A DNA stretch of 64,000 nucleotides, taken from the NCBI GenBank assembly GCA_028874335.1, contig JAPPJY010000013.1:6526-70525 (forward strand), read 5' to 3'. The DNA is from Gemmatimonadota bacterium (GTDB taxonomy: Bacteria; Latescibacterota; UBA2968; GCA-2709665). The translations under genes were made by a program, and so were the position numbers. This document shows positions 233 to 63,430 of this stretch, one piece after another. The number at the start of each line of letters is the position of its first letter. Position 1 is the first letter of the stretch. The notes under the pieces were generated by a model. The model was given only the letters and a program-made list of their open reading frames with translations. It did not search any database and was not told where the DNA came from.

Positions 233-1156
233 GTAGTAATACGCGGGTTCTTCAACTTCAATTCGGCTCTTCTCGGTCAGGTGGATCGGACTCGACAACT
301 TCTGAATGACTTCCTGCTGAACGAGCCATTCACAGGCCGCTTCAAGGCCGCCGCCTTGGATCTTTTTTTCGAAATAATCGCTGATTTCCGAGAGTCTACG
401 CACTTCAGACGATTCCTCCAGGTAATTCAGCAGCGGGCGAAAGAGATCCGGCGTCCCTTCCTCCAGAAAATTGTTGACCAGATCGAGTACGCGTTTGACG
501 GACTCGCGCGTCTTGGACTGACTCACGAAGTCCGTGTAGACCGCGTCGAATAGCTGTGGATTGTATTTCAGCGCCTGATGGACCACTTCCCGGCCGGGCG
601 CTTCGTTGTGCAGGATCACCTGGATCGATGCCAGGTCGCGCACAACCTGCATGAGCCACCAGAAGCTGTATTCGTAGTCCATTTTCAGGTAGAAGTACTT
701 TTCGGCTTTGTTGAGCGACGGTATCAGAAAGCTTGCGTGTCTCAACAGTTGGTATGCCCGGTCTCTCGCTCCGATTTGATCGATGGCGTCGTACCATCTC
801 GCCACGGAATCGTCTTTCGTGAAAAGAAGGGTACTCGTCGAAAACGTAAAGTCCAGCCACCCTCCGGCGAGGTCGCCCTCGATCCGTCGTTTGAAAACGC
901 TGCGGGGAATGCGTTGCGCGTGGATGTTGACTTCGTCTTCACAGAGCGTTACATGTCCTTCTTTCACCCCATCCTGCATGATGATCCACAGATCGATGTC
1001 CGAATTCACCCAGACTTCGTCGTAGGACAGACTGCCAAACAGAATCGCAGCCAGTACCGTCCGGTCCGTTTCGAGTTTTCCGGCCAGAGACGACAGCGCG
1101 CTCCGGTAGTGTTTCCGGATTTCATCCGGAGTGTCAGGAAGCATCGAAAACTCCAT
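221..1156 (-). CDS. Nucleotidyltransferase-domain protein (Pol-beta fold)
   Basis: ORF 221..1189(-). Motif FGSLSYDEVWVNSDIDLW (GS...DxD). The internal Met MEFSMLPD at 1156 is the more plausible start, but the start is uncertain. Confidence 0.7.
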   Translation of the reverse strand: MEFSMLPDTPDEIRKHYRSALSSLAGKLETDRTVLAAILFGSLSYDEVWVNSDIDLWIIMQDGVKEGHVTLCEDEVNIHAQRIPRSVFKRRIEGDLAGGWLDFTFSTSTLLFTKDDSVARWYDAIDQIGARDRAYQLLRHASFLIPSLNKAEKYFYLKMDYEYSFWWLMQVVRDLASIQVILHNEAPGREVVHQALKYNPQLFDAVYTDFVSQSKTRESVKRVLDLVNNFLEEGTPDLFRPLLNYLEESSEVRRLSEISDYFEKKIQGGGLEAACEWLVQQEVIQKLSSPIHLTEKSRIEVEEPAYYYDGE

Positions 1157-13779: not shown

Positions 13780-13911
13780 GAATTCTCCTTTCGGTAATTG
13801 CTTCATTTTGCTATCTTTTCCTGCCCTTGTGGACCAAGAAGCTGTCTTAAAGACATTCCTTCATCTGCAAATAGAGCCAGTCCCGACTCCCGTTCGAAGG
13901 TTCGGCGGAAC

Positions 13912-36669: not shown

Positions 36670-37770
36670 TCACGCCTTCCGTGCAGGAACTGCCGCGTCC
36701 TTCATCCGTGCCGTGTAGAACAAGTCGGGGCCGGTCCAATCCACGTCGACCTGATTCAGGTGAATCGCATCGGCCATTCTCGTTATTCCCAGGTCGCCAA
36801 CCGAATCAACCCCTCTTCCCAGAATCGCCGGCGCGATAAACACCGCGAGCCGGTCGATCAACCGCTCGCGCATCGCGGAAGCAGCCACTGCGCCTCCGCC
36901 TTCGATCAACACATGGGTAAACCCTTCGGCGCCGGCACGGGAAAGCACGTCCCGGAGCATGGGCCTTCCATCCCTTGGCGGACTGACCCATACGCGCGCG
37001 CCGCGCGTCTCCATCGCTTCGACTTTTTTTTTTGAGACGCCTTGCGCTGCGGCGAGAATCAACGCCGCCCCGTTGAATACCTTTGCGTCCCGTGAGATCT
37101 CGAGGCGACTGTCCAGCACGATCTTGGCCGGATCCGGACCGTCGAGATGCCGCACTGTCAGCGCAGGATCGTCCGCGTCTACAGTCCCCCTTCCGACCAT
37201 GACCGCGGACGCTTCAGCACGCAGCCCGTGCGCCTTAACCCTGGACGCGTGGGAGGAAATCCATCTCGACTCGCCCGAAGCCGTCGCAATGCGGCCGTCG
37301 AGGGTCTGCGCCAGCTTCAGGGTGACGAAAGGAAGGCCCGTGGTCCGGTGTTTTACGAATATTTCGTTCAGTCGACGCGCCTCTTCCTCGAGTACGCCAA
37401 CCTCCACCCGCACACCTGCCTCCCGCAACCGGTCGATGCCTCTGCCGGAAACCCGTCTGTCCGGGTCCGTCATGCCGCAAACGACCCGCGCAACCCCTTT
37501 CCTGATCAACAAATCCACACACGGCGGCGTACGGCCGGTATGTGCGCATGGTTCGAGGGTCACGTACAATGTTACGCCGGGGGTTCCGTCGGCCATTCCT
37601 TCAAGCGCGTAGACCTCCGCGTGCGGCATTCCGGATTCAGGGTAGTAACCTTTTCCGATAATCTGGCCTTCACGAACCGCCACCGCACCCACAAGCGCAC
37701 CGTCCCGTACCCGACCGCGCCCCTTCTCGGCCAGCGACAACGCCAGCCGCATATAATCCGCATCCGTCAT
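36670..37770 (-). CDS. ribD: Bifunctional riboflavin deaminase/reductase
   Basis: HAEVYAL...TLEPCAHTGRTPPC deaminase zinc motif plus a RibD C-terminal reductase domain. Start Met at 37770. The ORF upstream extension runs into the MITE. Confidence 0.93.
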   Translation of the reverse strand: MTDADYMRLALSLAEKGRGRVRDGALVGAVAVREGQIIGKGYYPESGMPHAEVYALEGMADGTPGVTLYVTLEPCAHTGRTPPCVDLLIRKGVARVVCGMTDPDRRVSGRGIDRLREAGVRVEVGVLEEEARRLNEIFVKHRTTGLPFVTLKLAQTLDGRIATASGESRWISSHASRVKAHGLRAEASAVMVGRGTVDADDPALTVRHLDGPDPAKIVLDSRLEISRDAKVFNGAALILAAAQGVSKKKVEAMETRGARVWVSPPRDGRPMLRDVLSRAGAEGFTHVLIEGGGAVAASAMRERLIDRLAVFIAPAILGRGVDSVGDLGITRMADAIHLNQVDVDWTGPDLFYTARMKDAAVPARKA

Positions 37771-49483: not shown

Positions 49484-49512
49484 TTGACACTCTCGATGTG
49501 ATTGTTTAATGT
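49484..49512 (+). promoter_or_regulatory. Candidate sigma-70 promoter of the aromatic operon (TTGACA-N17-TAATGT)
   Basis: -35 at 49484-49489 and -10 at 49507-49512, about 70 nt upstream of the leader ORF. Confidence 0.55.
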
Positions 49513-49585
49513 TAGAACGTTCCTGTCGGAGCGGCTGATTGCCGTCGCCAGGTTCGAAACCGGCAGGACACTGGATCGTGGAGGA

Positions 49586-49699
49586 ATGAACGTGACAGAT
49601 CGTGATCGAAACGGGTTTTCCTGGCGTGGGTATTTTTATCGCTCCTACCGGTGGTATTACCGGGAGGTCTCGGATTGTTGTGTCTGCCCACGCGAATAA
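49586..49699 (+). CDS. Candidate leader peptide rich in Trp/Tyr/Phe (37 aa)
   Basis: GGAGGA (49580-49585), then ATG 49586 (or GTG 49592 with better spacing). MNVTDRDRNGFSWRGYFYRSYRWYYREVSDCCVCPRE has 9 aromatic residues (2 W, 5 Y, 2 F) in the 15-residue window at 49616-49660. The stop is at 49697-49699. Confidence 0.65.
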   Translation: MNVTDRDRNGFSWRGYFYRSYRWYYREVSDCCVCPRE

Positions 49700-49733
49700 G
49701 CTGCTGAAAAAGACGTAAACCGGGCCGTGGGCA
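49624..49733 (+). promoter_or_regulatory. Attenuator alternative pairings (segments 1:2 and 2:3)
   Basis: Segment 1 GCGTGGG (49624-49630, over the first Trp codon) is complementary to CCCACGC (49687-49693). Segment 2 TGCCCACG (49685-49692) is complementary to segment 3 CGTGGGCA (49726-49733), which is the 5' arm of the terminator. Confidence 0.65.
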
Positions 49734-49753
49734 TCTGCTCACGGTTTTTTTTT
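49725..49753 (+). terminator. Attenuator terminator (3:4 hairpin + T9) 34 nt upstream of trpE
   Basis: CCGTGGGC-ATCT-GCTCACGG (8 bp including one G-T pair) followed by nine T (49745-49753). Confidence 0.8.
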
Positions 49754-49786
49754 GATTCGGCCGACTCAGGACGCCGGTACCGCGAA

Positions 49787-51304
49787 ATGGCGGCACAACC
49801 GGCCAACTGCCTGGTGAAACTCGTGAACACACCCGATTTGGAGACGACAAAAACGTTGGCCAGGGACCGGGGAATCGTTCCGATCTCCCGCGAAATCCTG
49901 GGGGATACGGAAACCCCGGTTTCCGCCTATTTGAAGCTGCGGCCCGGGAGTCCCTACAGCTTTCTCTTCGAAAGCGTGGAAGGAGGCGAGAAGATCGGCC
50001 GTTATTCCTTCCTGGGCGTGGAGCCGTTCCTTGCCTTTCGGTCGTGGAAATCCCGGATTGAGATAGAGGATCTGAAGCGGGGCGGCGTGAGGGCGTTCGA
50101 GGGATCGCCCATCGCCGAGCTCAGGCGTCTGCTGGGGAAATACCGTTCGGCGCAGCTGGAGGGGCTGCCCCGGTTTACCGGCGGAGCCGTGGGTTACGTG
50201 TCCTACGATGCAATCCGGCTGGTTGAGAACATCCCGGACCGGACGCGCGACGACCACGGTCTGCCCGACGTCGTATTACTCTTCTACGATACGCTACTTG
50301 GCTTCGACAACGTCAGGCAGAAGATCCATCTGATATCCAACGTGCATACCGATGGAGATATCGAGCGGAATTACCGGGAGGCGAAAGCGCGAATCGATGC
50401 GCTGGAAACGGCATTGCGGGGGCCGATTCCCGCCAATGGCGTCCCGGCGGAAACGTCCCGCAGCCGCGCGAGCGAAATCCGGTCGAACACGGAACGGTCG
50501 GTTTTTCTGGACAAGGTGCGCCGCTGCAAGGAATACATCGTCGCGGGCGATATTTTCCAGGTTGTACTCTCGCAGCGCTTCGAGACCGAGATTACCGTGG
50601 GATCTCTGGACATATACCGTGCGCTGCGCACGGTGAATCCGTCGCCGTACATGTTTCATCTGGACCTCAGGGACGTGCAACTCGTAGGCGCGTCGCCGGA
50701 ACTGCTGGTGCGTGTCGAAAACGGCGTCGTGCAGGTGCGTCCCATTGCGGGCACACGCTGGAGAGGGGCTACGGAAGAAGAGGATTCCACCCTCGCGGCG
50801 GACCTGCTGGCGGACGAAAAGGAACGTGCGGAGCATATAATGCTGCTGGACCTGGGTCGGAACGACGTCGGTCGGGTATCCAGATACGATACCGTACGTG
50901 TGACCGAACAGATGGCAATTGAGCGTTATTCTCACGTGATGCATATCGTCTCGAACGTTCGGGGTCGCCTCAGGGACGGCGTGGATGCACTGGATGCGCT
51001 GTATGCCTGTTATCCGGCAGGTACGGTTTCCGGCGCGCCCAAGATCCGGGCGATGGAAATTATCGACGAACTGGAGCCGACCCGCCGCGGGCCTTATTCG
51101 GGGGCCGTGGGTTATATAGATTTTTCGGGCAATATGGATACGTGCATCGCCATACGTACGATGGTGCTGCAGGGACGGAGAGCGTACGTCCAGGCCGGCG
51201 GTGGGATTGTGTTCGATTCCGTACCGGAAAACGAACACCTGGAAACGGTAAATAAAGCGAAGGCGCTGTTCAGGGCGGTGGAACTGGCGGAGGGTGCGGT
51301 TTAG
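49787..51304 (+). CDS. trpE: Anthranilate synthase component I
   Basis: 505 aa from Met 49787. LGDTETPVSAY, ...GAVGY.SYD, AGTVSGAPK, GPYSGAVGY, conserved chorismate-binding domain. Confidence 0.95.
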   Translation: MAAQPANCLVKLVNTPDLETTKTLARDRGIVPISREILGDTETPVSAYLKLRPGSPYSFLFESVEGGEKIGRYSFLGVEPFLAFRSWKSRIEIEDLKRGGVRAFEGSPIAELRRLLGKYRSAQLEGLPRFTGGAVGYVSYDAIRLVENIPDRTRDDHGLPDVVLLFYDTLLGFDNVRQKIHLISNVHTDGDIERNYREAKARIDALETALRGPIPANGVPAETSRSRASEIRSNTERSVFLDKVRRCKEYIVAGDIFQVVLSQRFETEITVGSLDIYRALRTVNPSPYMFHLDLRDVQLVGASPELLVRVENGVVQVRPIAGTRWRGATEEEDSTLAADLLADEKERAEHIMLLDLGRNDVGRVSRYDTVRVTEQMAIERYSHVMHIVSNVRGRLRDGVDALDALYACYPAGTVSGAPKIRAMEIIDELEPTRRGPYSGAVGYIDFSGNMDTCIAIRTMVLQGRRAYVQAGGGIVFDSVPENEHLETVNKAKALFRAVELAEGAV

Positions 51305-51352
51305 CGCCAGCATTGTACGTTGCCACTCTTAACTACAATGTCGGGTTGACTC

Positions 51353-51916
51353 ATGATCCTGGTAATCGACAATTACGATTCGTTCACGTACAATCTGGTC
51401 CAGTATCTGGGCGAGTTGGGCGCACGGATGGATGTGTTCCGGAATGATCAGATCGAACTTGACCGGATCGACGCAACTCAGCCGGAGAAGGTGGTGATTT
51501 CGCCCGGTCCCTGCACACCGAACGAGGCGGGTGTCTCCGTGGATCTTATCCGGCGATTCAGCGGGCGGATTCCAATGCTGGGAGTCTGTCTCGGGCACCA
51601 GTGCATCGGACAGGCCTTTGGCGGCAAGGTTGTGAGGGCGCCGGCAATTCTTCACGGGAAGGTGTCCGAGATTCATCACGACGGACGTACGATTTTCCGG
51701 GATATGTCCCATCCCTTCATCGCAACGCGATACCATTCGCTGATGGTCGAAAGGGGGAGCCTTCCGGACTGCCTCGAAGTGTCCGCGCAGACAGACGATG
51801 GTATAATCATGGGTCTGCGGCACAGGAAATACCCGGTTGAAGGCGTTCAGTTTCATCCCGAGTCCATATTGACGGCCGAGGGTAAAGTGTTGTTGAGGAA
51901 TTTTCTGGAAGGCTGA
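51353..51916 (+). CDS. trpG: Anthranilate synthase component II (glutamine amidotransferase)
   Basis: [30 protein letters not shown] triad motifs. Confidence 0.95.
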
Positions 51917-51971
51917 AATCCAGGGATTGAAAACCCGTCCCATTCTCAGCTTGCATGATGGGGAGACGGCT

Positions 51972-52985
51972 ATGTCGATACAGGATGCGATCGCGAAACT
52001 GATTGAGGGTGAGAACCTGACGCGCGACCGGATGATCGGGGCGATGAACCAGATCATGTCGGGTGGGGCCACGGACGCGCAGATCGGCGCCTTCCTTGTG
52101 GCGCTCCGGGTCAAGGGCGAGACAGTGGAGGAGATCGCCGGCGCCGCCGACGTGATGAGGGAAAAGGCCACGCGTGTCGGCACGCGGCACGCGACGGTGG
52201 TCGATACGTGCGGTACCGGTGGCGACGGTTCGGGAACGTTCAATATCTCCACGGCGGCGGCGTTTGTCGTGGCCGGCGCCGGATTGTGTGTAGCAAAACA
52301 CGGAAACCGCGCCGCGTCCAGCCTCTGTGGAAGCGCCGACGTTCTGAAGGCACTGGGGGTGAACATCGAAGCGTCGCCGGAAACGATGGGGCGGTGTCTG
52401 GACGAGGCAGGCATCGGGTTTCTGTTTGCTCCGGCTCTGCACGGCGCCATGAAGTATGCGATCGGACCCAGACGCGAGCTTGGTGCGCGCACGGTTTTCA
52501 ACGCCCTGGGGCCGCTGACCAATCCGGCAGGCGCCGCCCGGCACCTGATCGGGGTATACAGCCGGTCTCTGACCCACACGCTCGCGGAGGTATTGCGGAC
52601 ATTGAAATCGGAACGCGCGTTTGTGGTACACGGGCTGGACGGACTTGATGAGATCACCACGACCGGACCAACGCAGGTGAGCGAGCTGAACGACGGGACG
52701 GTTTCCACGTACGAAATCACGCCCGAGGAGCTGGGCATCTCGAGGGCGTCGCCAGGCGACCTGGCGGGAGGAAGCGCCGAGACCAATGCGGCGATCCTGC
52801 GCAGGGTGCTGCACGGCGAGCCTGGTCCGCGGCTTGACATCGTTCTGCTGAACGCGGCGGCCGCGATTGTCGCGGGCGGCGCGGCGGATGATCTGCCGGC
52901 GGCTATGGAACTGGCCAGAGACGCCGTGGATTCCGGGCGAGCAATGGATAAACTGGAAGAACTCAAACTGGTTTCGAACGGATAA
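51972..52985 (+). CDS. trpD: Anthranilate phosphoribosyltransferase
   Basis: ATG 51972 follows GGGGAG. VDTCGTGGDG, NISTAAAFV, GPLTNPA motifs. Confidence 0.95.
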   Translation: MSIQDAIAKLIEGENLTRDRMIGAMNQIMSGGATDAQIGAFLVALRVKGETVEEIAGAADVMREKATRVGTRHATVVDTCGTGGDGSGTFNISTAAAFVVAGAGLCVAKHGNRAASSLCGSADVLKALGVNIEASPETMGRCLDEAGIGFLFAPALHGAMKYAIGPRRELGARTVFNALGPLTNPAGAARHLIGVYSRSLTHTLAEVLRTLKSERAFVVHGLDGLDEITTTGPTQVSELNDGTVSTYEITPEELGISRASPGDLAGGSAETNAAILRRVLHGEPGPRLDIVLLNAAAAIVAGGAADDLPAAMELARDAVDSGRAMDKLEELKLVSNG

Positions 52986-52986
52986 A

Positions 52987-53778
52987 ATGGCTACCATCCT
53001 GGATGAGATCATCGCATACAAGCGGCGCGTTGTGGCCGAGGCAAAACAACGGGTCTCGCCCGGGGTTTTGTGGGAAAGGGCGGGCCAGACGCGGGCGCCG
53101 GGCTCCCTGACGAAAAGCCTGACCGCCGGAGAGGATATCGCGCTCATTGCGGAAATAAAAAAGGCATCTCCATCGAAAGGGGTAATCAGGGAAGATTTCG
53201 ATCCGGTTGCAATCGGCCGGGCCTACGAGAAGAACGGCGCGGCGGCAATTTCCGTGCTTACGGACGATAAGTATTTCCAGGGCTCCGACGCGAGTCTGAG
53301 CGCCGTAAGCGAAGCCGTACAACTGCCGGTGCTCCGCAAGGATTTTGTGATCGATCCGTATCAGATCCACGAAGCCAGGACAATCGGTGCGGCCGCGGTT
53401 CTGCTGATTGTCTCAGCGCTCTCGAAACGTGAACTTCCGGAGATGCTCACCGTCTGCAGGGAGTCGGACCTGGACGCCCTGGTGGAAGTACACACCAGGG
53501 AGGAAGCGAGCATGGCGCTGGACGCGGGCGCAGACCTTGTCGGGGTGAATAACCGCAACCTGAAGACGTTCGAAACCGATTTGCGAACCACGTTCGAACT
53601 GATTGAACATCTTCAGGGAGGTCCGGTCATTGTAAGCGAGAGCGGGATCGAGACCAGGGACGACGTCGTCCGGTTGAGGGATGCCGGCGTGGATGGGGTG
53701 CTGGTTGGGGAGCATCTGATGCGCCATCCCGACGTCGGCCGGAAGCTTCGAACGCTGCTGGGCAGGGAAGGCGGTTGA
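52987..53778 (+). CDS. trpC: Indole-3-glycerol-phosphate synthase
   Basis: MATILDEIIAYKRRVV, IAEIKKASPSKG, RKDFVIDPYQI, LVEVH, NNRNL motifs. Confidence 0.95.
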   Translation: MATILDEIIAYKRRVVAEAKQRVSPGVLWERAGQTRAPGSLTKSLTAGEDIALIAEIKKASPSKGVIREDFDPVAIGRAYEKNGAAAISVLTDDKYFQGSDASLSAVSEAVQLPVLRKDFVIDPYQIHEARTIGAAAVLLIVSALSKRELPEMLTVCRESDLDALVEVHTREEASMALDAGADLVGVNNRNLKTFETDLRTTFELIEHLQGGPVIVSESGIETRDDVVRLRDAGVDGVLVGEHLMRHPDVGRKLRTLLGREGG

Positions 53779-53786
53779 TCCGACGC

Positions 53787-54419
53787 ATGGTTCGCGTGAA
53801 GATTTGCGGAATTACAAATCCGGAAGATGCGCTCTTTTCTGTCGCACACGGCGTGGACGCGCTCGGTTTCATCTTCTACAAGCCCAGTCCGCGATACGTA
53901 CACCCGGAACGCGTGAGCAATATTGTCTCGGCGTTACCGCCGTTCGTGACGCCCGTAGGGGTTTTCGTGAACAAGGCCAGGGAGGAGATCGTGGAAACCG
54001 TGCGGTCCACCGGGATTCGGGCGGTCCAGTTGCACGGCGACGAGACACCGGCCGACTGTCTGGGTTATCCGACTCCGGTCATCCGGGCATTGCGGGTCGG
54101 CGACGGATTCAACCCTGCTTCCCTGAGCGACTATCCGGTAAACACGTTTCTGCTGGATACGGACAAAAAGGGACGGTACGGCGGCACCGGAGAGACCTTT
54201 GACTGGCGGTTCGCAAGGGCAGCGACCGCACACGGGCGGATCATCCTCTCGGGGGGAATGGATCCTTCGAACGTGGCCGATGCTGTCCGAACGGTGAAAC
54301 CGTACGCCGTAGACTGCGGCAGCGGCGTTGAAGCCGCGCCCGGCCGGAAGGACCACGCCAGAATCCGCGAGTTTTTGAGGGCGCTCCGCTTTGCGAATCG
54401 CCGCCAACAGCATGTCTGA
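53787..54419 (+). CDS. trpF: Phosphoribosylanthranilate isomerase
   Basis: MVRVKICGITN...DALGFIF...QLHGDE. A TTG at 53775 is an alternative start. Confidence 0.92.
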   Translation: MVRVKICGITNPEDALFSVAHGVDALGFIFYKPSPRYVHPERVSNIVSALPPFVTPVGVFVNKAREEIVETVRSTGIRAVQLHGDETPADCLGYPTPVIRALRVGDGFNPASLSDYPVNTFLLDTDKKGRYGGTGETFDWRFARAATAHGRIILSGGMDPSNVADAVRTVKPYAVDCGSGVEAAPGRKDHARIREFLRALRFANRRQQHV

Positions 54420-54442
54420 ACCCACTATCGGAGCCCAATACA

Positions 54443-55705
54443 GTGGACATCTTGAAAGATCTGGATTTTCGGGGGTACCTCTTTCAGGTAACCGATCCCG
54501 ACGGACTCGAAGCGCGGCTGGCCGGCGGGCCCATAACGCTTTATTCAGGGTTCGACCCCACGGCCGACAGTTTGCACGTGGGCAACCTGATACCCATTCT
54601 CGGATTGCGGCGGTTTCAACTGGCCGGGCATCATGCGATCGGGCTTATCGGGGGAGGCACGGGTCTGATAGGCGATCCGAGCGGCAGCAAGGAAGAACGT
54701 CCGTTGAACCCGCCCGAGTTGATCGCGGAATATACGGGAAGACTCGCAGAGCAACTCGCCAGGTTTCTCGATTTTGAGACCGGAGCCAATCCCGCCCGGG
54801 TGGTCAGCAATCTGGGATGGCTCTCCGAACTGAAGGCGATCGACTTCCTGAGGGACACGGGCAAGCACTTCTCCATGGGCTATATGCTGGCGAAAGAGTC
54901 CGTGGCTTCCCGGCTGGAAACCGGAATCTCATTCACCGAGTTCAGCTATATGGTCATTCAGGCCTATGATTTCATGGAGTTGTTTCAGGCGCACGGATGC
55001 GAGCTCCAGATTGGCGGGAGCGATCAATGGGGCAATATTACAGCGGGAATCGAACTGATCCGGCGCCGGCTGGGCGGACAGGCGCACGGCCTGACGTTTC
55101 CACTGCTTGAGAAGGCAGACGGCTCCAAGTTCGGAAAGACGGCATCCGGCACCGTCTGGCTCGACGCTGGAAAAACGACGCCCTACCAGTTTTACCAGCA
55201 TTGGATCAATACGGACGACCGGGACGTCGTGTCGTTTCTGAAGCTGTTTACCTTTCTCTCCGGGAATGAAATCAGGAATCTGGAAACGGAAGTGACAGAA
55301 CATCCCGAAAAGCGAGAGGCGCAGCGGGTGCTGGCCGAGGAAGTCACCACGCTCGTACATGACAGATCCGCCACCGAAAGGGCGCGGCGGATTTCCGACG
55401 CGTTGTTCTACGGGGAACTGAGGGACCTGAGTGCGCGAGAGATCGAGGAAGGGTTCAGCGACGTGCCGTCTCAGGCGCTCAATGGCGTTTCAGGCGTGGG
55501 ACTGATGGATCTGCTGGTCAACGTCGGCATTTCATCTTCCATGCGCCAGGCGCGGGAAGATATCCGGTCCGGCGCGATATACGTCAATGGCCGGCGTTGC
55601 GCCGATACGGGCATGATGCTTGAACCCTCGGACAGAATCGCCGGCAGATACGTGGTCGTGCGCCGGGGCAAACGCCGCTACTTTCTCGTGCGCTGGAATC
55701 TCTGA
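54443..55705 (+). CDS. tyrS: Tyrosine--tRNA ligase
   Basis: GTG start. GFDPTADSLHVGNL (HIGH), KFGKTASG (KMSKS-like), C-terminal S4 domain. Confidence 0.95.
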   Translation: MDILKDLDFRGYLFQVTDPDGLEARLAGGPITLYSGFDPTADSLHVGNLIPILGLRRFQLAGHHAIGLIGGGTGLIGDPSGSKEERPLNPPELIAEYTGRLAEQLARFLDFETGANPARVVSNLGWLSELKAIDFLRDTGKHFSMGYMLAKESVASRLETGISFTEFSYMVIQAYDFMELFQAHGCELQIGGSDQWGNITAGIELIRRRLGGQAHGLTFPLLEKADGSKFGKTASGTVWLDAGKTTPYQFYQHWINTDDRDVVSFLKLFTFLSGNEIRNLETEVTEHPEKREAQRVLAEEVTTLVHDRSATERARRISDALFYGELRDLSAREIEEGFSDVPSQALNGVSGVGLMDLLVNVGISSSMRQAREDIRSGAIYVNGRRCADTGMMLEPSDRIAGRYVVVRRGKRRYFLVRWNL

Positions 55706-55711
55706 CCTGAG

Positions 55712-55793
55712 AAGCTGTCTTTAAATTCCCCGCGGTCTTCGCGCGGCTGCGAAAGCGGCGGTCGGGAACTCACCGGTAATTTTAAAACAGCTT
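55712..55793 (+). mobile_element. MITE-like element, family B, copy 1 (internal-deletion derivative)
   Basis: AAGCTGTCTTTAAATTCCCCGCGG...GGTAATTTTAAAACAGCTT. It contains only the two ends of the 186-nt copy at 59413-59598. Flanked by the perfect 5-bp direct repeat CTGAG (55707-55711 and 55794-55798). Confidence 0.9.
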
Positions 55794-55888
55794 CTGAGGA
55801 CGCGCGGCCGCGGATGCGTATCGAAGAGCGGTGCAGATGATTAACAGCCGAAACCCATCGTGAATGTCATCAGGAGAGGAACCTTTCA

Positions 55889-56866
55889 ATGAAAGCACCC
55901 TGGATCACCTATCGGCCGGAACTCAAGGTATTGGACTGTACGATTCGAGACGGCGGATTGATGAACGACCACCAGTTTTCCAATGATTTCGTAAAGGCCG
56001 TTTATGAGACCTGCGTCGACGCGGGCGTCGACTATATGGAAATCGGGTACCGGAACTCCAAAGAGATGTTTCCGAAAAAGCAATTCGGAGCCTTCCGGCA
56101 CAGCGACGAAGAAGATATCCGCAGGATCACGGGGGACCACGACCCTGAAACCACCGGCCTGAAGCTTGCCATCATGGCCGATGCCGGCAAAAGCGACTGG
56201 GCGGAAGATATCCTGCCGGCCAGCGAAAGCGTGGTCAGCATGGTACGGGTGGCCTGCTACGTCGAGCAGATTCCCGAGACCGTTGAAATGCTCTGCGACG
56301 CCCACGAGAAAGGATATGAAACCAGCTGCAACATCATGGCCATTTCGACCGTGCAGGAAGTGGAGATCGATCAGGCGCTGGAGGTCCTTGTCGAAACGCC
56401 GGTGGGTACAATATGTGTCGTCGACAGCTTCGGCGCATTGTACCGCGAGCAGGTGGATATGCTCATCCGGAAGTATATGGATGCCGTCGAAGGAATGGGA
56501 AAGGAAGTGGGCATTCACGCGCACAACAACCAGCAACTGGCATTCGCCAATACCATCGAAGCGCTTATCCTGGGCGCCAACCGCGTTGATGCCACGGTGG
56601 ACGGACTTGGCCGCGGCGCCGGGAATTGCCCGCTCGAACTGCTGCTCGGCTTCCTTCGCAATCCAAAATTCAAGATTCGACCCGTCTACAAGCTGCTGGA
56701 AGCCCACTTTGTCGGATTGCGCGAGCAATTGACGTGGGGGCCTCTGGTGCCGTACAACATCACGGGACAGCACAACCAGCATCCCCGCTCGGCGATGGCG
56801 CTTCTGGACGGGGACGACCGCGACCGCTATCTGGCGTTCTACGATCAGGTGATGAGGGATATCTAG
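55889..56866 (+). CDS. DRE-TIM metallolyase (HMGL-like/pyruvate carboxyltransferase-domain aldolase), function unknown
   Basis: AGGAGAGGA precedes the ATG at 55889. [10 protein letters not shown]..., [32 protein letters not shown] are HMGL-like metal-binding motifs. Its stop TAG overlaps the trpB GTG (TAGTG). Confidence 0.8.
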
Positions 56867-58071
56867 TGCTCAACAGAGATGAAGCCGCACGGACGTGGCC
56901 CGATGCCAGGGGACACTTCGGACCCTACGGCGGGCGCTATGTGCCGGAGACGTTGATGCCGTTGCTCGAGGACCTGGAATCAGCCTACCGCGACGCGAGT
57001 GACCGTCCGGATTTCCGCGAGGAACTGGACCGTTATCTCAGGGAATTTGTCGGAAGGCCCACGTCACTCTATTTCGCACAGCGACTGACCGAAGAACTGG
57101 GCGGGGCCAGAATCTATCTGAAACGGGAGGACCTCGCCCACACCGGCGCGCACAAGATAAACAACACGATGGGGCAGATTCTGCTTGCCAGGCGCATGGG
57201 AAAAACACGGATCATCGCCGAAACGGGCGCCGGGCAGCACGGTGTGGCGACGGCGACCGTAGCTGCGATGTTCGGACTGAAGTGCGAGATTTACATGGGC
57301 ACCGAGGACATGGACCGGCAGGCGTTGAATGTGTTCCGGATGCGGCTCCTGGGCGCCAAAGTAACCGGCGTGGAATCGGGAAGCAGGACGCTCAAGGATG
57401 CGATCAACGAGGCAATCCGGGACTGGGTGACGAACGTGGACGATACGTTCTATATTTTCGGATCCGTCCTGGGACCTCACCCGTATCCGATGATCGTACG
57501 GGATTTTCAACGGGTGATCGGGGTGGAGACCCGCGCGCAGATCCTGCGGGCCGAAGGCCGGTTGCCGGACTGTCTGATCGCATGTGTCGGCGGCGGCAGC
57601 AATTCGATGGGGCTGTTTCACGCGTTTCTGGACGATGCGGACGTGCGCATGATCGGCGTCGAAGCGGGAGGCCATGGCATTGCCTCCGGCGACCACGCCG
57701 CCCGGTTTCAGGGAGGAGATCTCGGCGTGTTGCACGGGGCGAGGATCTACCTCCTGCAGGACGAGGACGGGCAGATCGCACTGACCCATTCGGTATCGGC
57801 AGGCCTGGACTATTCCGGCGTGGGCCCCGAGCACTGTCTCCTGCGGGATGAGGGCCGGATCGAGTATGCGTATGCAACCGACGACGAAGCCCTGAAGGGG
57901 TTTCAACTGTTGAGTCGCACGGAGGGTATCATTCCAGCACTGGAAAGCGCGCACGCGATCGCGCACGTGTCGAAAGCGGCGCCGGCAATGGACAGGGATG
58001 CTATAATCGTGGCGAATCTCTCAGGCCGCGGCGACAAGGACGTACAGCAGGCGGCGAAGTACCTGGACTGA
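56866..58071 (+). CDS. trpB: Tryptophan synthase beta chain
   Basis: GTG at 56866 in ORF 56626..58071. [24 protein letters not shown] (PLP Lys), [21 protein letters not shown]. Confidence 0.95.
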
Positions 58072-58272
58072 CCATGATTCGTATGTTTTCGGGTACGTTA
58101 ATTCGTATATGTGCAAGTAGATAAAGGCGATTAAACTGCGGATTACCAGGATAAACCTGGTCACTGGACGTGAACGGAAGAAATGGCCTACCTGACAACC
58201 ATTTCGGCCCGTTTCGGAAAGTTTCGTCGCGGTGCCGCGTTGCGGTTTTTGCGGAATTAAGGCTAACAGCCC
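58072..58272 (-). mobile_element. MITE-like element, family A, copy 3
   Basis: Reverse complement aligns end to end with copies 1 and 2. Flanks are CTGA (58068-58071, containing the trpB TGA stop) and CTAA (58273-58276). Confidence 0.85.
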
Positions 58273-58313
58273 GTTTGGTTTACCGGGCCGGGTCGAATCA
58301 CGGAGTTGTACTG

Positions 58314-59126
58314 ATGACGAGGATCGGGAGACGGTTCGAAGCGTTGAAGAAAGCGGGAACGACCGGGTTCGTCGCCTATATCACGGCCGGAGACCCGGAT
58401 ATGGCAACCACCCGGAAATTCGTACCGGAGCTGGAAAGGCGCGGGGTGGACATACTTGAGCTGGGCGTTCCGTTCTCCGATCCGCTGGCGGACGGACCTG
58501 AGATCCAGGCGGCCTCGCAGCGGGCGCTGAGGCATCGCGTTTCCATCGGCGACGTCATGGACCTGGTGGCGGTTCTGCGGCAGGAGTCCGAGATACCCAT
58601 TGTCCTGTTTACGTATTTCAATCCGATGCACCGCTTCGGTCTCAAACGGCTTGTCGACAGAGCGGCCGAAGCGGGGGTGGACGGCATTCTGGCGCTGGAT
58701 CTTCCACCGGAAGAGGCGGGGGAGTACAAGGGTCTGATGGAGAAACGGGGACTGGATACGATTTTTCTCATCGCGCCCACCAGCCGCGAGGACCGCATTC
58801 GACGAATCGCGTCTCACACCAGCGGATTCGTGTATTACGTGTCCCGCACCGGCGTGACCGGGGAGCGGGACCGCCTGGAGGAAACACTGGGCGAAAGGGT
58901 GGCGGCAATCCGGCGACACACCTCGCAACCGGTAGCTGTCGGATTCGGGATTTCGACGCCCGAACAGTCCGGTGAGGTTGCGGGTTACGCGGATGCGGTT
59001 GTGGTTGGCAGCGCAATCGTGCGACGGATCGCACAGCGGCAGTCCGACCCGGATCTCGTTTCCCACATCGGGGATTTCGTCGAAGAACTGGTGCAACCGC
59101 TGAAGGGAGCATCCGATGGATCTTGA
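58314..59126 (+). CDS. trpA: Tryptophan synthase alpha chain
   Basis: Met 58314. FVAYITAGDPD, LELGVPFSDPLADGP, GFVYYVS..GVTG, GFGIS. Confidence 0.95.
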   Translation: MTRIGRRFEALKKAGTTGFVAYITAGDPDMATTRKFVPELERRGVDILELGVPFSDPLADGPEIQAASQRALRHRVSIGDVMDLVAVLRQESEIPIVLFTYFNPMHRFGLKRLVDRAAEAGVDGILALDLPPEEAGEYKGLMEKRGLDTIFLIAPTSREDRIRRIASHTSGFVYYVSRTGVTGERDRLEETLGERVAAIRRHTSQPVAVGFGISTPEQSGEVAGYADAVVVGSAIVRRIAQRQSDPDLVSHIGDFVEELVQPLKGASDGS

Positions 59127-59385
59127 AGACTGGCGCAGGGAAATCGACATCCTGGACCAGAAGCTGCTGGAGCTTCTGAATCGACGAGCCGAATGCGCCA
59201 TGGAAATCGGCAGGATCAAGCAGGCTATCGAACAACCGATCTTCGTGCCGGAACGTGAGAAGTCGATCCTGAACCGGATACTTGAACTGAACGAGGGGCC
59301 CACGGACGACGAGGCGGTGCGACGGATCTTTCAGCAGATCATCGATGAGTCCAGGCGCCTCATGCAGAAGAATCAGGAAAGCTAA
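59116..59385 (+). CDS. AroQ-class chorismate mutase
   Basis: AAGGGAG precedes the ATG at 59116. LEDWRREIDILDQKLLELLNRRAECAMEIGRIK......P.RE..IL is the CM type 2 helix pattern. 11-nt overlap with trpA. Confidence 0.85.
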   Translation: MDLEDWRREIDILDQKLLELLNRRAECAMEIGRIKQAIEQPIFVPEREKSILNRILELNEGPTDDEAVRRIFQQIIDESRRLMQKNQES

Positions 59386-59412
59386 TCAGGGGCGAACCTT
59401 TCTAAACCTTAG

Positions 59413-59598
59413 AAGCTGTCTTAAAATTCCCAGCGGTCTTCGCACGGCTGCAAAAGCGCCGGTCGGCGTTGGGCAAATCCACCCAAGAGTGGCGAGGGGC
59501 GCGCAGCCACGATACATTGAATATGGGCGGATTCTCCCGCCTTGACCGCCGCTTTTTCGCTCGTGCTCGGGAACTCACCGGTAATATTAAAACAGCTT
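59413..59598 (+). mobile_element. MITE-like element, family B, copy 2 (full length)
   Basis: TIR AAGCTGTCTTAAAATTCC...GGTAATATTAAAACAGCTT. Flanked by the perfect 5-bp direct repeat CTTAG (59408-59412 and 59599-59603). Confidence 0.9.
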
Positions 59599-59668
59599 CT
59601 TAGCTCGAGATCGGTCGGGACGTTTCGTCACGTTTGAAGAACGAGGTTAGTCACGGAGTCGGCAGCGC

Positions 59669-60697
59669 ATGGCATTCACGAAAAACATGAAGATACCCAC
59701 GCCGGAAGCCGTTCTGGACAAGATGCCGCTTCCGAAGAACCTGAAGGGTATAAAGGAGCAGCGGGATGCGGAAATCAGCGACGTCTTCGCGCGCAGGAGC
59801 CGGAAGTTTCTCCTTGTGATCGGCCCCTGCTCCGCGCACAATGAAGACGCCGTGTGTGAATACGTCTCCCGGTTGGCGAAACTGCAGGAGGCCGTCCGGG
59901 AGACGCTGATTCTCGTGCCCCGACTCTATACCAACAAACCCCGCACAACCGGCGAGGGATACAAAGGCATGGGACATCAGCCGGACCCGCGAAAGGCGCC
60001 AGACATGTCCGAGGGCATCTACGCGGTCCGTCAGATGCACATCCGGGCGGTCCGGGAATCCCACCTGACGGCGGCCGACGAAATGCTCTATCCGGGCAAT
60101 CTGCCGTACGTCGAGGACCTGCTGAGCTATATAGCCGTGGGCGCCCGGTCGGTAGAAAACCAGCAACACCGATTGACCTGCAGCGGCGTAGACGTACCCG
60201 TTGGAATGAAGAACCCGACGGGAGGAGATCTTTCGGTTATGCTGAACGCGATTCATGCCTCCCAGATCCCGCACGTCTTCATCTATAACGGCTGGGAGGT
60301 ACGCACCGACGGCAATCCCATGACGCACGCCGTGCTTCGCGGCGCCGTGGACGTAACCGGGCGCAGCATACCGAACTACCATTTCGAGGACCTCATGTAC
60401 GCGGCGGAACTGTATCGGCAGCGGCCGCTCGCCAACGCCGCGATCGTCGTGGATACGAATCACAATAACTCGGGCAAGCAGTTCAGTGAACAGCCGCGGA
60501 TCGGGTTGGAAGTGATACGCAGCCGGCAGAATTCGGCGTTCCTGAACGACATGATCCGCGGATTGATGGTGGAGAGCCATCTGGTTGAGGGGGCGCAAGA
60601 CGTCAATGACGGCGTGTACGGCAAATCCATTACCGATCCATGCCTGGGGTGGGAAGATACCGAGGCGTTCGTAAAGGAACTGGCCGAGGGGATATGA
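59669..60697 (+). CDS. aroG: 3-deoxy-7-phosphoheptulonate (DAHP) synthase, class I-alpha type
   Basis: LLVIGPCSAHN, KPRTT, GARSVENQQHR, VGMKNP, DTNHNNSGKQ, MVESHLVEGAQ, YGKSITDPCLGWEDT. The motifs match the E. coli AroG-type pattern from memory. Confidence 0.9.
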   Translation: MAFTKNMKIPTPEAVLDKMPLPKNLKGIKEQRDAEISDVFARRSRKFLLVIGPCSAHNEDAVCEYVSRLAKLQEAVRETLILVPRLYTNKPRTTGEGYKGMGHQPDPRKAPDMSEGIYAVRQMHIRAVRESHLTAADEMLYPGNLPYVEDLLSYIAVGARSVENQQHRLTCSGVDVPVGMKNPTGGDLSVMLNAIHASQIPHVFIYNGWEVRTDGNPMTHAVLRGAVDVTGRSIPNYHFEDLMYAAELYRQRPLANAAIVVDTNHNNSGKQFSEQPRIGLEVIRSRQNSAFLNDMIRGLMVESHLVEGAQDVNDGVYGKSITDPCLGWEDTEAFVKELAEGI

Positions 60698-60775
60698 TCG
60701 CGAACGGGACCGGAAGGCAGGAACCGACCCGAACGTCCCGCGGGAGCTTTCGCCTCCGCCTCCGAGGATGACCGC

Positions 60776-61888
60776 ATGGCCAACGATCCTCCTTTTGCGC
60801 GCGATGCGATTGCAGTTGTCGGGGTGGGGCTGATTGGCGGTTCGCTCGGGCTGGCGCTCAAGGGTCTGGGCATCGGAAGTCGTATCGTCGGCATCAGCCG
60901 GCAGGAGACCCTGGACGCGGCCTTCGCGCTGGATGTTATCGACGCGGGCTATCGCTATGAGGACCTCGAATCCGGGATTCGCGATGCGGCGCTGGTTTTC
61001 CTGTGCACGCCCATCGTCCGTATTCTGGACATGCTGCCTGAGGTGCTGGGAGCGGCGCGGCAGGATGCGCTCGTGACGGATGTCGGCAGCACCAAGCATG
61101 CGATTGTCTCCACGGCGACGGCCCACGCACGGGATGGCGTGCATTTCGTCGGCGGGCACCCGATGGCCGGTTCCGAGCATCGCGGGGTGGGCGCGGCGGA
61201 CCCGTTCCTTTTTCAGAATGCGATTTATGTGTTGACGCCGTCGCCGGACACGCCCGATATCGTGGTTGAAAAGCTCGCGCGTCTCGTAAGGGCGTTCGGG
61301 GCCAGACCGATGAAGATGACGCCCCGGGAACACGACCGCGCGGCGGCGGCGGTAAGCCACCTGCCGCAGATGATGGCCACAAGCCTGGTGTCCATGGTCG
61401 GAAGGATGACGGAAGACGAAGGGCTGCCGATTCGAATGGCGGCGGGGGGGTTTCGGGACCTGACGCGCATTGCTTCCAGTCCATATGAAATGTGGCGGGA
61501 CATCTGCCATACGAACGCGGCCCCGATCCGGGAGATGATCGATCTTTATATAGAGTCGCTTTCGGCAATTCGCTCGGCCGTGGACCGCGAACGCCTGGAA
61601 CAGGCATTTGCCTATGCGAATCGAATACGCGGACAGATCCCGAAGGACTCCAAGGGATTCCTGCATCCACTGCACGAAATCCTCCTCCTGGCGGAGGACA
61701 GGCCGGGCGTGATCGCCCACGTCGCCAGGACACTGGCCGGAGAGAATATCAACATAAACGACATCGAGGTGCTGAACGTGCGCGAGGGGGAAGGGGGCAC
61801 GATTCGGATGGGGTTCGATTCACGTTCGTGCGCGGAACGAGCCGTTGACGTACTGGCGAAAGCGGGCTACAGCGTGAGATTGAGATAA
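60776..61888 (+). CDS. tyrA: Prephenate dehydrogenase with C-terminal ACT domain
   Basis: IAVVGVGLIGGSLG Rossmann motif, GGHPMAGSE, C-terminal ACT-like LLLAEDRPGVIAHVARTLAGENINI. Confidence 0.9.
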   Translation: MANDPPFARDAIAVVGVGLIGGSLGLALKGLGIGSRIVGISRQETLDAAFALDVIDAGYRYEDLESGIRDAALVFLCTPIVRILDMLPEVLGAARQDALVTDVGSTKHAIVSTATAHARDGVHFVGGHPMAGSEHRGVGAADPFLFQNAIYVLTPSPDTPDIVVEKLARLVRAFGARPMKMTPREHDRAAAAVSHLPQMMATSLVSMVGRMTEDEGLPIRMAAGGFRDLTRIASSPYEMWRDICHTNAAPIREMIDLYIESLSAIRSAVDRERLEQAFAYANRIRGQIPKDSKGFLHPLHEILLLAEDRPGVIAHVARTLAGENININDIEVLNVREGEGGTIRMGFDSRSCAERAVDVLAKAGYSVRLR

Positions 61889-61889
61889 G

Positions 61890-62048
61890 AAGCTGTTTTA
61901 AAATTCCTGGTGAGTCCCGAGCGCGAGCGAAAATGTGTCGGTCAAGGCGGGCAAAGGCGCCCATATTTGGGTATACGGGTGCTTTTGACCAACGCAGACC
62001 GACGGGTTTGCAGCCGCGCGAAGACCGCTGGGGGTTTTAAGACAGCTT
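61890..62048 (-). mobile_element. MITE-like element, family B, copy 3 (inverted)
   Basis: Aligns with the reverse complement of 59413-59598 at both ends; the centre is partly diverged or deleted. Flanks are ATAAG (61885-61889, containing the tyrA TAA stop) and CTAAA (62049-62053). Confidence 0.85.
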
Positions 62049-62131
62049 CTAAAGCGTAAGATCCGGAGACGATTGAACCGGAAAGATCGCTTTCCCTCCG
62101 CTGGCGACCGCATTATAAAGAAGGCCTCGTA

Positions 62132-63430
62132 TTGGAACTCACGGCGTCGGGAATCTCCGAAGATAGCATCAAACCATCGCCCGGGCTCAAGGGGGTTACC
62201 GACCTCCCCGGCGATGCTGAACTTTCGATAATCGCCCTCGCCCTTGCGTCCACGGCCGACGGGATTTCCGAAGTGCGCAGGTGTTCGCGAAGACGCGACG
62301 TCGAGCGAACCGGTGAGTTGCTGTCGGAACTCGGGATTATGGTGGCGCGGGACGGTGAGACCGCTACGGTAACCGGCGCGCCGTTCCGGGCGACGGACAA
62401 TGTGCTGAATGTGGACGGTTCCCTTATCCTGTTTTCCTGTCTGGCGGGATTGCTGTCGAGCGCCCCATTTGTAACGAGGCTCTCCGGGGTTCAGACGGAA
62501 GACGGCGTCGACCGGGTTGCCAAGGCGCTTCGATCGCTGGGCGCGCACGTGAATATTTCGGTTACGGACGGGATATCGGCCGGTGTTGGCGGGTCAAGGT
62601 TGGCGCCCGGATCCTACCGCGTCGGACGTCCCGACCTGGCGGTGAAATGCGGCGTACTGATGGCAGGGCTGGGTGTGGACGGGCCGGTTGAACTCCTTCA
62701 GGACACCGGCGGGGACGACGATCTGGAAGTGTTGCTCCGGGCCGCGGGATGCGATCTGAAGAAGAAGCGGATCAAGGAGGACGGAGGTTATCAGTTGTTG
62801 ATGGAAGGACCCGCGCGGCTCCGCGCCGCTACCCATGAGCTGCCGGGAAGTCCGGACGCCGGGTTGTTTCTCGCCCTGGCTGCGGCGATGCTGAATCAGT
62901 CCGATCTGACGTTAAGCCATTTCGGAATGGACTCGAGAAGCCGCAGGATCGTGGACATACTGCGCAGGATGAACGTGGCTATGGATGTGACCCATTTCCG
63001 GACGGATTCCGGTTTCCCTGCCCGGAACTTACGGATCAGGGGGTCCGACCTGCGCGGCATAAGAATCGCGGGCGCGAACGCGCGACTGATGCGGGACGTG
63101 CTCCCACTCGTGGCGGTCGCAGGCGCCGTTTCCCGGGGCGAAACCATAATTCGGGATGCCGGGGCATTGAGGAATGGACCGGTTGACTGTATTTCGGTTC
63201 TCGTGGAGAACCTGAGGAAGATGGACATTCAAGTGGGAGAGATGCCGGACGGGCTGGTTGTGAAGGGGGGACAACCTCAAGGCGACGAGCTCGATGCCGC
63301 CGGCGACGCCCGCGTGTCCATGGCGCTCCGGCTGGCAGCGCTGGCCAGCGAGGGGGACACGCTCGTCAGGAATCCCGGGCCCGTGGATCAGGGGATGATG
63401 GACCGGCTGGCGTCAGTACAGAAAGCGTAG
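62132..63430 (+). CDS. EPSP synthase-fold protein with most canonical active-site motifs substituted
   Basis: Homology to 3-phosphoshikimate 1-carboxyvinyltransferase is clear along its length (LPGD...,  LRSLGA, LPGSPDAGLFLALAAAM, GDARVSMAL). However, PGDKSISHR reads PGDAELSII, GNSGTTxR reads DGSLILFS, KVKExDR reads RNGPVDC, and DHR reads DAR. TTG start is uncertain. Confidence 0.7.
   Translation: MELTASGISEDSIKPSPGLKGVTDLPGDAELSIIALALASTADGISEVRRCSRRRDVERTGELLSELGIMVARDGETATVTGAPFRATDNVLNVDGSLILFSCLAGLLSSAPFVTRLSGVQTEDGVDRVAKALRSLGAHVNISVTDGISAGVGGSRLAPGSYRVGRPDLAVKCGVLMAGLGVDGPVELLQDTGGDDDLEVLLRAAGCDLKKKRIKEDGGYQLLMEGPARLRAATHELPGSPDAGLFLALAAAMLNQSDLTLSHFGMDSRSRRIVDILRRMNVAMDVTHFRTDSGFPARNLRIRGSDLRGIRIAGANARLMRDVLPLVAVAGAVSRGETIIRDAGALRNGPVDCISVLVENLRKMDIQVGEMPDGLVVKGGQPQGDELDAAGDARVSMALRLAALASEGDTLVRNPGPVDQGMMDRLASVQKA

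Follow-up and report, generated by a model that had tools for sequence, protein, structure and literature searches.

In enterobacteria the regulatory codons of a leader peptide may be of more than one kind, the thr leader mixing threonine and isoleucine codons and the ilvGMEDA leader combining isoleucine, leucine, and valine codons. The attenuators of the E. coli trp operon, pheA, and pheST have been summarised in PMC11802643. The element considered here is situated directly upstream of trpE in the 64-kb stretch of bacterial DNA presented above (the window, by which the whole stretch is meant), and it most likely attenuates transcription by means of a translating ribosome, in the manner of Escherichia coli trpL. 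The order of its parts, namely a promoter, a Shine-Dalgarno (SD) sequence, a short open reading frame (ORF) with clustered regulatory codons, and the RNA segments 1 to 4, is that of the E. coli trpL, pheL/pheA, pheST, his, thr, and ilv systems, and as in the enterobacterial attenuators the stop codon stands beside segment 2 and a terminator lies just before the first gene. In the window the pairings 1:2/3:4 and 2:3 would likewise exclude each other. Like the thr and ilvGMEDA leaders, the codon run specifies more than one amino acid. However, the leader has neither sequence nor covariance-model similarity to its enterobacterial counterparts. It is longer than trpL with its two adjacent Trp codons, its 35 codons including nine scattered regulatory ones for Trp, Tyr, and Phe, and the operon downstream, unlike the enterobacterial cases, joins Trp genes with tyrS, tyrA, aroA, and the genes for chorismate mutase (CM) and 3-deoxy-D-arabino-heptulosonate 7-phosphate (DAHP) synthase, in a host that probably belongs to the Fibrobacteres-Chlorobi-Bacteroidetes (FCB) group.

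A similar joining of pathways is found in the aromatic supraoperon of Bacillus subtilis, aroFBH-trpEDCFBA-hisC-tyrA-aroE, where the trp RNA-binding attenuation protein (TRAP) binds (G/U)AG repeats and sets a terminator/antiterminator switch before trpE, sensing Trp only. The window unit likewise combines trp genes, tyrA, and common-pathway genes and has its switch before trpE, but it lacks such repeats, and its leader, translated as predicted, is the likely sensor. A TRAP-type leader contains about 9-11 (G/U)AG triplets, spaced 2-3 nt apart and overlapping the antiterminator; in 49513-49790 of the window four scattered triplets were counted, with no run of at least three, and TRAP control was rejected. 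Within the FCB group, the Bacteroid-trp motif precedes trp genes and is a putative attenuator with a leader peptide. Table 1 of PMC2864571 gives this motif (RF01692) as a candidate cis-regulatory RNA of the Bacteroidetes. The window element resembles it as a cis-regulatory RNA candidate in an FCB-group phylum, but no covariance-model match to it was obtained in the window or in two relatives at E-values up to 10, and the two are separate sequence families.

Attenuation by leader peptides has also been described in Actinobacteria. In Corynebacterium glutamicum, ribosome stalling on the aroR leader (Phe-Tyr-Phe) upstream of aroF acts on a DAHP-synthase operon (Neshat et al., 2014, per PMC11802643), and Phe limitation affected transcription whereas Tyr limitation did not (PMC11802643). 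The predicted window leader shares the mixed aromatic regulatory codons of aroR, but it has nine instead of three, includes Trp, precedes trpE and not an aroF operon, and belongs to another phylum. Streptomyces trpS and leuS, also outside the Proteobacteria, are preceded by classical attenuators (PMC1262725). As in these and in E. coli pheST, an aminoacyl-tRNA synthetase gene (here tyrS) is placed under a leader rich in its own codons (PMC11802643, PMC1262725); unlike them, however, tyrS is no direct target but comes sixth in an operon for biosynthesis. A preliminary description of the locus had contrasted an FCB-like genome with a mechanism best known from Proteobacteria. The FCB-like placement is reasonable, given a relative whose TrpE is 73% identical, Latescibacteria bacterium UBA2968 (L001), which is assigned by NCBI to the FCB group and the phylum Candidatus Latescibacterota; judged by this similarity, the window host probably belongs there too. 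The surprise is smaller than had been suggested, since attenuation is already known in Actinobacteria and candidates exist in Bacteroidetes, so that the phylum is less unexpected. A literature search on attenuation in Latescibacteria returned nothing relevant.

The anatomy and geometry of the element were observed directly (Table 1): a leader ORF with an SD, a cluster of cognate codons, a terminator, a 2:3 antiterminator, and a stop codon near segment 2. The promoter described previously (P1, TTGACA-N17-TAATGT) stands as to coordinates and spacing, and the relatives read retain TTGACA/TTGACT-N17-TAnnnT at the corresponding position, with a variable spacer sequence. This conservation argues for P1 as the promoter, with a transcription start predicted near 49519. 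The leader frame is open from both ATG 49586 and GTG 49592 through the TAA. The ATG adjoins the SD without a spacer and is ATC in L081 and L083, whereas the GTG is conserved with an SD spacer of 6-8 nt; the leader, earlier given 37 codons from the ATG, is therefore corrected to 35 codons. An SD-like purine-rich stretch 6-10 nt ahead of the start codon is present in the other members read. The ORF is predicted to be translated. The 2 Trp, 5 Tyr, and 2 Phe codons noted before are all present, and these nine aromatic residues among 15 codons constitute the top 15-codon window over the six frames of the 64 kb (binomial P = 3.9e-8 per window, at the aromatic background of 6.05% in the operon proteins). 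A second aromatic-rich stretch, near 697 on the minus strand, is located inside long ORFs and was hence rejected as a leader. Four leader peptides, that of the window included, gave no match to Pfam or NCBIfam at E-values up to 10.

Table 1. Positions of the attenuator, the operon genes, and other features in the window, and of selected regions in related and outgroup loci (locus labels beginning with L).
Feature	Position	Strand	Sequence, basis, or remark
Predicted promoter P1	-35 TTGACA 49484-49489; -10 TAATGT 49507-49512	+	17-nt spacer; sequence reading
5' hairpin of leader RNA	49522-49529 / 49560-49567	+	CCTGTCGG / CCGGCAGG; between predicted start and SD
Shine-Dalgarno	49580-49585	+	GGAGGA; 6 nt before GTG 49592
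Leader ORF	49592-49699 (TAA 49697-49699)	+	35 codons and stop, VTDRDRNGFSWRGYFYRSYRWYYREVSDCCVCPRE; sequence, start conservation
Regulatory codon run	49616-49660	+	FSWRGYFYRSYRWYY; 2 Trp, 5 Tyr, 2 Phe in 15 codons
Trp codons of run	49622, 49652	+	
Tyr codons of run	49631, 49637, 49646, 49655, 49658	+	
Phe codons of run	49616, 49634	+	
Segment 1	49624-49632	+	GCGTGGGTA; with segment 2 a putative anti-antiterminator and perhaps a pause hairpin
Segment 2	49685-49693	+	TGCCCACGC; last leader codons TGC CCA CGC; partner segment 1 or segment 3
Segment 3	49726-49733	+	CGTGGGCA; antiterminator 3' arm, overlaps terminator 5' arm
Intrinsic terminator	49725-49732 / 49737-49744 (segment 4); T9 49745-49753	+	CCGTGGGC / loop ATCT / GCTCACGG
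Aromatic supraoperon	49787-63430	+	Pfam; all genes on + strand
trpE	49787-51304	+	
trpG	51353-51916	+	
trpD	51927-52985	+	
trpC	ends 53778	+	
trpF	53775-54419	+	
tyrS	54443-55705	+	
HMGL-like gene	55889-56866	+	
trpB	ends 58071	+	
trpA	ends 59126	+	
Chorismate mutase	59116-59385	+	type II, 89 aa
DAHP synthase	59669-60697	+	
tyrA	60776-61888	+	prephenate dehydrogenase and ACT domain
aroA	62132-63430	+	5-enolpyruvylshikimate 3-phosphate (EPSP) synthase
Repeat resembling a miniature inverted-repeat transposable element (MITE)	55710-55795, 59411-59600, 61888-62050; lone end 13837-13852		AGAAGCTGTYTTAAAA ... TTTTAARACAGCTTCT, 85-190 nt
Leaderless region upstream of trpE	L140 and L141, 9840-10000		
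Candidate Trp-rich ORF	L002 7690-7900		
Candidate Trp-rich ORF	L023 ~7765-7824		
Candidate Trp-rich ORF	L059 ~7779-7850		
Candidate Trp-rich ORF	L064 ~7690-7818		
Candidate Trp-rich ORF	L067 ~667-783		
Candidate Trp-rich ORF	L069 ~49-123		

Two further hairpins occur in the leader region. The 5' hairpin of the leader RNA is retained in L081, and L083 and L085 have CCTGCTGG, with pairing still possible via U.G; it differs in L084 and in distant relatives, and the attenuator model does not need it. A small hairpin within the aromatic run (49648-49663, CCGGTG GTAT TACCGG over the codons CGG TGG TAT TAC CGG) could delay the ribosome or provide a signal for pausing, and related palindromes, CGG-TAY-TAC-CGG, recur in L087 and L133.

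The pairings announced in the preliminary description were all recovered. Segments 1 and 2 form a helix of 9 bp with one G.U (-12.2 kcal/mol for the helix alone), and the antiterminator joins TGCCCACG of segment 2 (49685-49692) to segment 3 by 8 perfect bp (-11.2 kcal/mol alone). The terminator hairpin, which was detected by a terminator scan, has 8 bp with one G.U and -16.1 kcal/mol, and its nine T end 33 nt before the trpE ATG (49787). This T tract is one of two T/A runs of at least 8 in the window; the other, T10 at 37024-37033, has no obvious preceding hairpin. The stop codon begins 12 nt past the start of segment 2. In the RNAfold minimum-energy structure of 49575-49765 both the 1:2 and the 3:4 helices are present.

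Because an equilibrium fold of the complete leader is uninformative on the switch, transcripts cut just past segment 3 were folded under a ribosome mask. The masked footprint reached 15 nt upstream and 12 nt downstream of the first base in the A-site codon, and pairs across the ribosome were forbidden. For the window, the probability of the antiterminator was 0-0.2 with the A site on codons 1-7 and 0.5-0.9 on codons 8-28, a range covering all aromatic codons; it fell to 0 once the A site was at the stop or any of the last 8 codons. An antiterminator blocked only by a ribosome at the ORF end was obtained for 12 of the 12 sequences modelled. Under this model the logic proposed earlier would hold, a ribosome at the stop codon leading to termination and one stalled in the aromatic run leading to the antiterminator.

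Conservation of the unit was likewise observed directly. Altogether 141 loci, labelled L001 and so on, were compared. A TrpE protein search yielded relatives with 60-92% identity, whose contigs supplied loci with the same gene order, and a TrpE scan of genome contigs added 80 loci, mostly from other phyla, which were reused as outgroups; among the matches listed in the latter search L001 is the only member of the attenuator family. Besides the window, 12 distinct relatives with TrpE identities of 64-92% have the promoter, leader ORF, antiterminator, and terminator immediately ahead of trpE (L081, L083, L085, L084, L108, L086, L087, L001, L133, L135, L136, and L138), so that leader and terminator are indeed kept together, as had been asked of relatives beforehand. 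Duplicates were merged for this count (L087 = L131 = L132; L133 = L134; L136 = L137; L138 = L139), and L001 shares its leader with L102. Eleven of the 12 were found through TrpE and thus independently of the leader, whereas L108 was found with a DNA pattern containing segments 2 and 3, the conservation of which is therefore by construction in this case. This pattern (segment 2, gap, terminator), applied to metagenome contigs, produced 43 matches, of which three were real (L094, identical to L082; L102; and the new L108); the others had no ORF and no T tract and were discarded. A regular expression for the segment 2/terminator core, run over all 141 loci, confined the element to the group with closely related TrpE.

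The 13 leaders, including that of the window, have 28-35 codons and 5-12 aromatic residues, among which Trp, Tyr, and Phe are always mixed (for example VTFAAYNSFFWRYFWYYRYYRQAQERCMPTL in L086, MVQKGAIFFDYFRAYWWERALEEDCPLH in L136, and MMHAGNSYYRQFGFRRFGYYWPGVQETRLPA in L138). Distant leaders differ in the order and spacing of these residues, the composition being kept without a peptide motif. Codons 12-25 (RGYFYRSYRWYYRE) of the five closest sequences differ by synonymous or Tyr<->Phe changes only, whereas their flanks vary non-synonymously. An alignment of 12 sequences with a mean column identity of 62% shows no variation in TGCCCA (segment 2) or TGGGC (segment 3), and TGCCC and TGGGC occur in all 13 sequences when L138 is included. 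Most members translate segment 2, TGCCCAC, as Cys-Pro, while L086 and L087 read it as Met-Pro-Thr (A TGC CCA C), and this use of two reading frames indicates a constraint on the RNA and not on the peptide. L138 has G for the A of the others both in segment 2 (TGCCCGC) and in segment 4 (GCCCGCGG), each facing the same U of segment 3. The stop codon follows the segment 2 start by 11-15 nt in 13 of 13 sequences. Across 12 sequences, 96.7% of the cells of the terminator helix are paired, with one two-sided change (C-G to U-A in L135) and four pairs that vary on one side, G.U to G-C among them, and every member has a T tract after the hairpin. For the antiterminator 92.7% of cells are paired, five of eight pairs are invariant, and the aligned relatives retain 6-8 bp.

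Several observations weigh against the interpretation as an attenuator or limit its reach. The -10 element of P1 is weak, and a consensus-based promoter scan missed P1, since TAATGT fits TATAAT at three of six positions only; this qualifies the promoter assigned previously. The stability of the whole leader does not differ from that of shuffled sequences (z = -0.20), and the full-length leader at equilibrium forms the terminator for any ribosome position masked, from which it follows that the decision would have to be kinetic. Such equilibrium dominance of the terminator is likewise seen with known attenuators. In 12 sequences no antiterminator pair has changed on both sides, and covariation tests of 3:4 and 2:3 on the same number of sequences did not exceed the shuffle control for either helix, because most pairs never vary; the structures are thus supported by conservation and complementarity, not by covariation. 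The 1:2 helix is in register in L081, L083, L085, and L001 and has lost one pair in L084, but it is out of register in more distant relatives, where segment 2 finds its partners elsewhere in the preceding ORF sequence and 2:3 often wins at equilibrium anyway. Six of the 13 leaders contain a single Trp codon, and weak Trp sensitivity would therefore be expected for an operon that starts with Trp genes. Several relatives have a promoter-like element between terminator and trpE: in L087 (9921-9950) TTGACA-18-TATTAT is scored by the scan with 11 of 12 consensus positions, and in L086 (~9919), L108 (~1700), L001 (~3318), L135 (~9963), and L136 (~9838) such an element was read by eye. It is followed in those relatives by a partly conserved 5' untranslated region of 60-100 nt, is absent from the window, and suggests dual control, with attenuation governing only part of trpE transcription where it occurs. 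Finally, L140, which has the same supraoperon and a TrpE of 63% identity, has neither leader ORF nor terminator within 160 nt upstream of trpE, so that the attenuator is not shared by the whole lineage.

In the proposed mechanism, transcription would start from P1 at about 49519, with a ribosome translating the 35-codon leader behind RNA polymerase. If charged tRNA-Trp, tRNA-Tyr, and tRNA-Phe were plentiful, this ribosome would arrive at the last codons or the stop (49676-49699) and cover segment 2 (49685-49693), so that the 3:4 hairpin and U9 would terminate transcription at about 49753 and release a leader transcript some 235 nt long. With slow reading at any one of the nine aromatic codons (49616-49660), the ribosome would stall upstream and mask or displace segment 1, and the free segment 2 would capture segment 3 as it emerges; no terminator would form, and transcription would read through into trpE and the operon. 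In the absence of translation the 1:2 helix would form first, followed by the terminator (super-attenuation).

The codon mix was also compared with operon content. In the 700 nt upstream of trpE at the 80 outgroup loci, candidate leader ORFs with WWW or WWWW were found, among the matches listed, in L023, L059, L064, L067, and L069; those of L023, L059, and L067 head plain trpEGDCF(B)(A) operons, and candidate leaders of trp-only operons of other phyla are nearly free of Tyr and Phe. From these sequences Trp leader peptides seem widespread outside the Proteobacteria. The hosts of ORFs with WWW or WWWW are metagenome-assembled genomes of Gemmatimonadaceae, Thermodesulfobacteriota, Syntrophales, Armatimonadota, and Balneolaceae. 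The leader of L002 (Gemmatimonadaceae), with its own TTGACA-N17-TACTAT promoter and terminator, reads RRWWWRFWSY, and its operon also contains CM, tyrA, and aroA genes. In this small sample, the trend fits the match between codon mix and operon content that had been proposed earlier, with WWW(W) before trp-only operons and mixed W/Y/F leaders, having one or two Trp codons, before the supraoperons of the present family. Within the family, L136 lacks tyrS, yet retains the Tyr codons. Since the window operon combines genes specific to Trp, the Tyr-related tyrS and tyrA, and the CM, DAHP synthase, and aroA genes common to the pathways, mixed codons would make its control multivalent for all three aromatic amino acids. 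The tentative proposal, plausible as a whole but not quite probable, is a trivalent attenuator that sums the charging of tRNA-Trp, tRNA-Tyr, and tRNA-Phe over a 13-gene supraoperon including tyrS, and that belongs to a clade-specific family of an uncultured FCB-group lineage (probably Latescibacterota) in which ancestral Trp-only codons gave way in part to Tyr and Phe codons as Tyr and common-pathway genes joined the trp operon.

A classical attenuator responding in practice to Trp alone, with Tyr and Phe codons that are incidental or merely slow the ribosome, would account for the position before trpE and five Trp-specific first genes, for the presence of at least one TGG in every leader, and for the WWW of L002, the nearest outgroup with a leader. 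It is nevertheless unlikely, because Trp codons are outnumbered by Tyr and Phe codons in every member and, in addition to the leaders with a single Trp codon, a tandem Trp pair exists in L136 alone. Moreover, the Tyr and Phe codons stay aromatic in close relatives, through the synonymous and Tyr<->Phe changes described above, and the near lack of such codons in candidate leaders of trp-only operons elsewhere also contradicts an incidental role.

The unit might also be a gene of its own, bounded by its own promoter and terminator and producing an aromatic-rich peptide and/or a trans-acting small RNA without any switch in cis. The near-consensus second promoter-like element before trpE in several relatives would fit such an arrangement, and attenuator-derived RNAs and leader peptides with trans functions have a precedent in Sinorhizobium (PMC6614838, PMC7298713). 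However, no second promoter is apparent in the window, L081, L083, or L085, and the gap between T tract and trpE in the window is short, as given above. The unit is invariably followed directly by trpE in the same orientation, its peptide is poorly conserved beyond composition whereas segment 2 is conserved as RNA in two frames, and the stop codon keeps its place with respect to segment 2, all of which renders a free-standing gene very improbable; a role in trans could, in any case, coexist with attenuation without replacing it.

In Firmicutes, trp and tyr genes are under TRAP- or T-box-type control, and the tna operon of E. coli is under TnaC-type control. In the window, Rfam searches of the whole 64 kb at the gathering score gave no match, and searches of the window leader and those of L086 and L136 up to an E-value of 10 gave nothing relevant (in the L086/L136 leaders, Thr_leader reached 14.9 bits against a gathering score of 55); a T-box riboswitch was rejected in the absence of both an Rfam match and the GGTGGNACC motif. 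A switch set by a protein or tRNA (TRAP-, T-box-, or PyrR-like) or by TnaC-like arrest on a free amino acid, with a coincidental codon content, has precedents for these genes (T-boxes: PMC1262725) but can practically be dismissed, given these results and the few scattered (G/U)AG triplets, the conservation of SD, open frame, aromatic enrichment, and stop position in all members, and a residue order that is not conserved as an arrest peptide would need.

The operon content reported before (trp genes, tyrS, tyrA, CM, and DAHP synthase) was confirmed by Pfam, which also identified aroA and the HMGL-like gene. No strong internal terminator was found in the supraoperon. Its gaps of 180-280 nt contain MITE-like repeat copies, and no further attenuator was seen in them; those between tyrS and the HMGL-like gene, CM and DAHP synthase, and tyrA and aroA are each filled by a copy with inverted ends AGAAGCTGTYTTAAAA (7 matches to the repeat ends in the window versus 0 expected). 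In relatives without the repeat the same genes are 10-60 nt apart. The lack of a strong terminator, the repeat nature of the gaps, and the tight packing in relatives make one long transcript plausible, and the supraoperon may thus be transcribed as a single unit. A repeat of this kind is also present in L084 (~5259-5425), just upstream of the leader promoter.

The tyrS/trpB junction is an insertion hot spot, occupied by the HMGL-like gene in the window (55889-56866), L081, L083, and L084, by a restriction-modification pair (N6_N4_Mtase and RE_MjaI) in L086 (15848-17743), and by a beta-lactamase-family gene in L135 (15856-17430) and L138 (16090-18594). In one sub-lineage the genes past chorismate mutase are replaced by defence genes (L087 18281-21154, L131 18534-21476, L132 18527-21379), either AbiJ/Abi_C or SMODS and SLATT, followed by a type III restriction-modification methylase; other relatives have DAHP synthase and tyrA at this position.

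The element represents a new sequence family, whereas its mechanism is already known. What is unusual is a regulatory run combining codons for all three aromatic amino acids, in a phylum that is unstudied. With this element, classical attenuation through leader peptides would reach a lineage of the FCB group, probably Candidatus Latescibacterota, a phylum that to our knowledge has no cultured member, and would imply coupled transcription and translation as well as working intrinsic terminators in these organisms. Since no Rfam, Pfam, or NCBIfam model covers the 13-sequence family, neither its small ORF nor its RNA switch is, for the most part, recognised in current annotation. The mixed Trp, Tyr, and Phe codons before an operon for Trp, Tyr, tyrosyl-tRNA synthetase, and shared precursors would be a clean natural example of multivalent attenuation and, together with the WWW ORFs of trp-only operons, offer a route to testing how codon sets follow operon content. 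If the trivalent reading is true, the family would constitute a natural record of regulatory codons co-evolving with the content of their operon.

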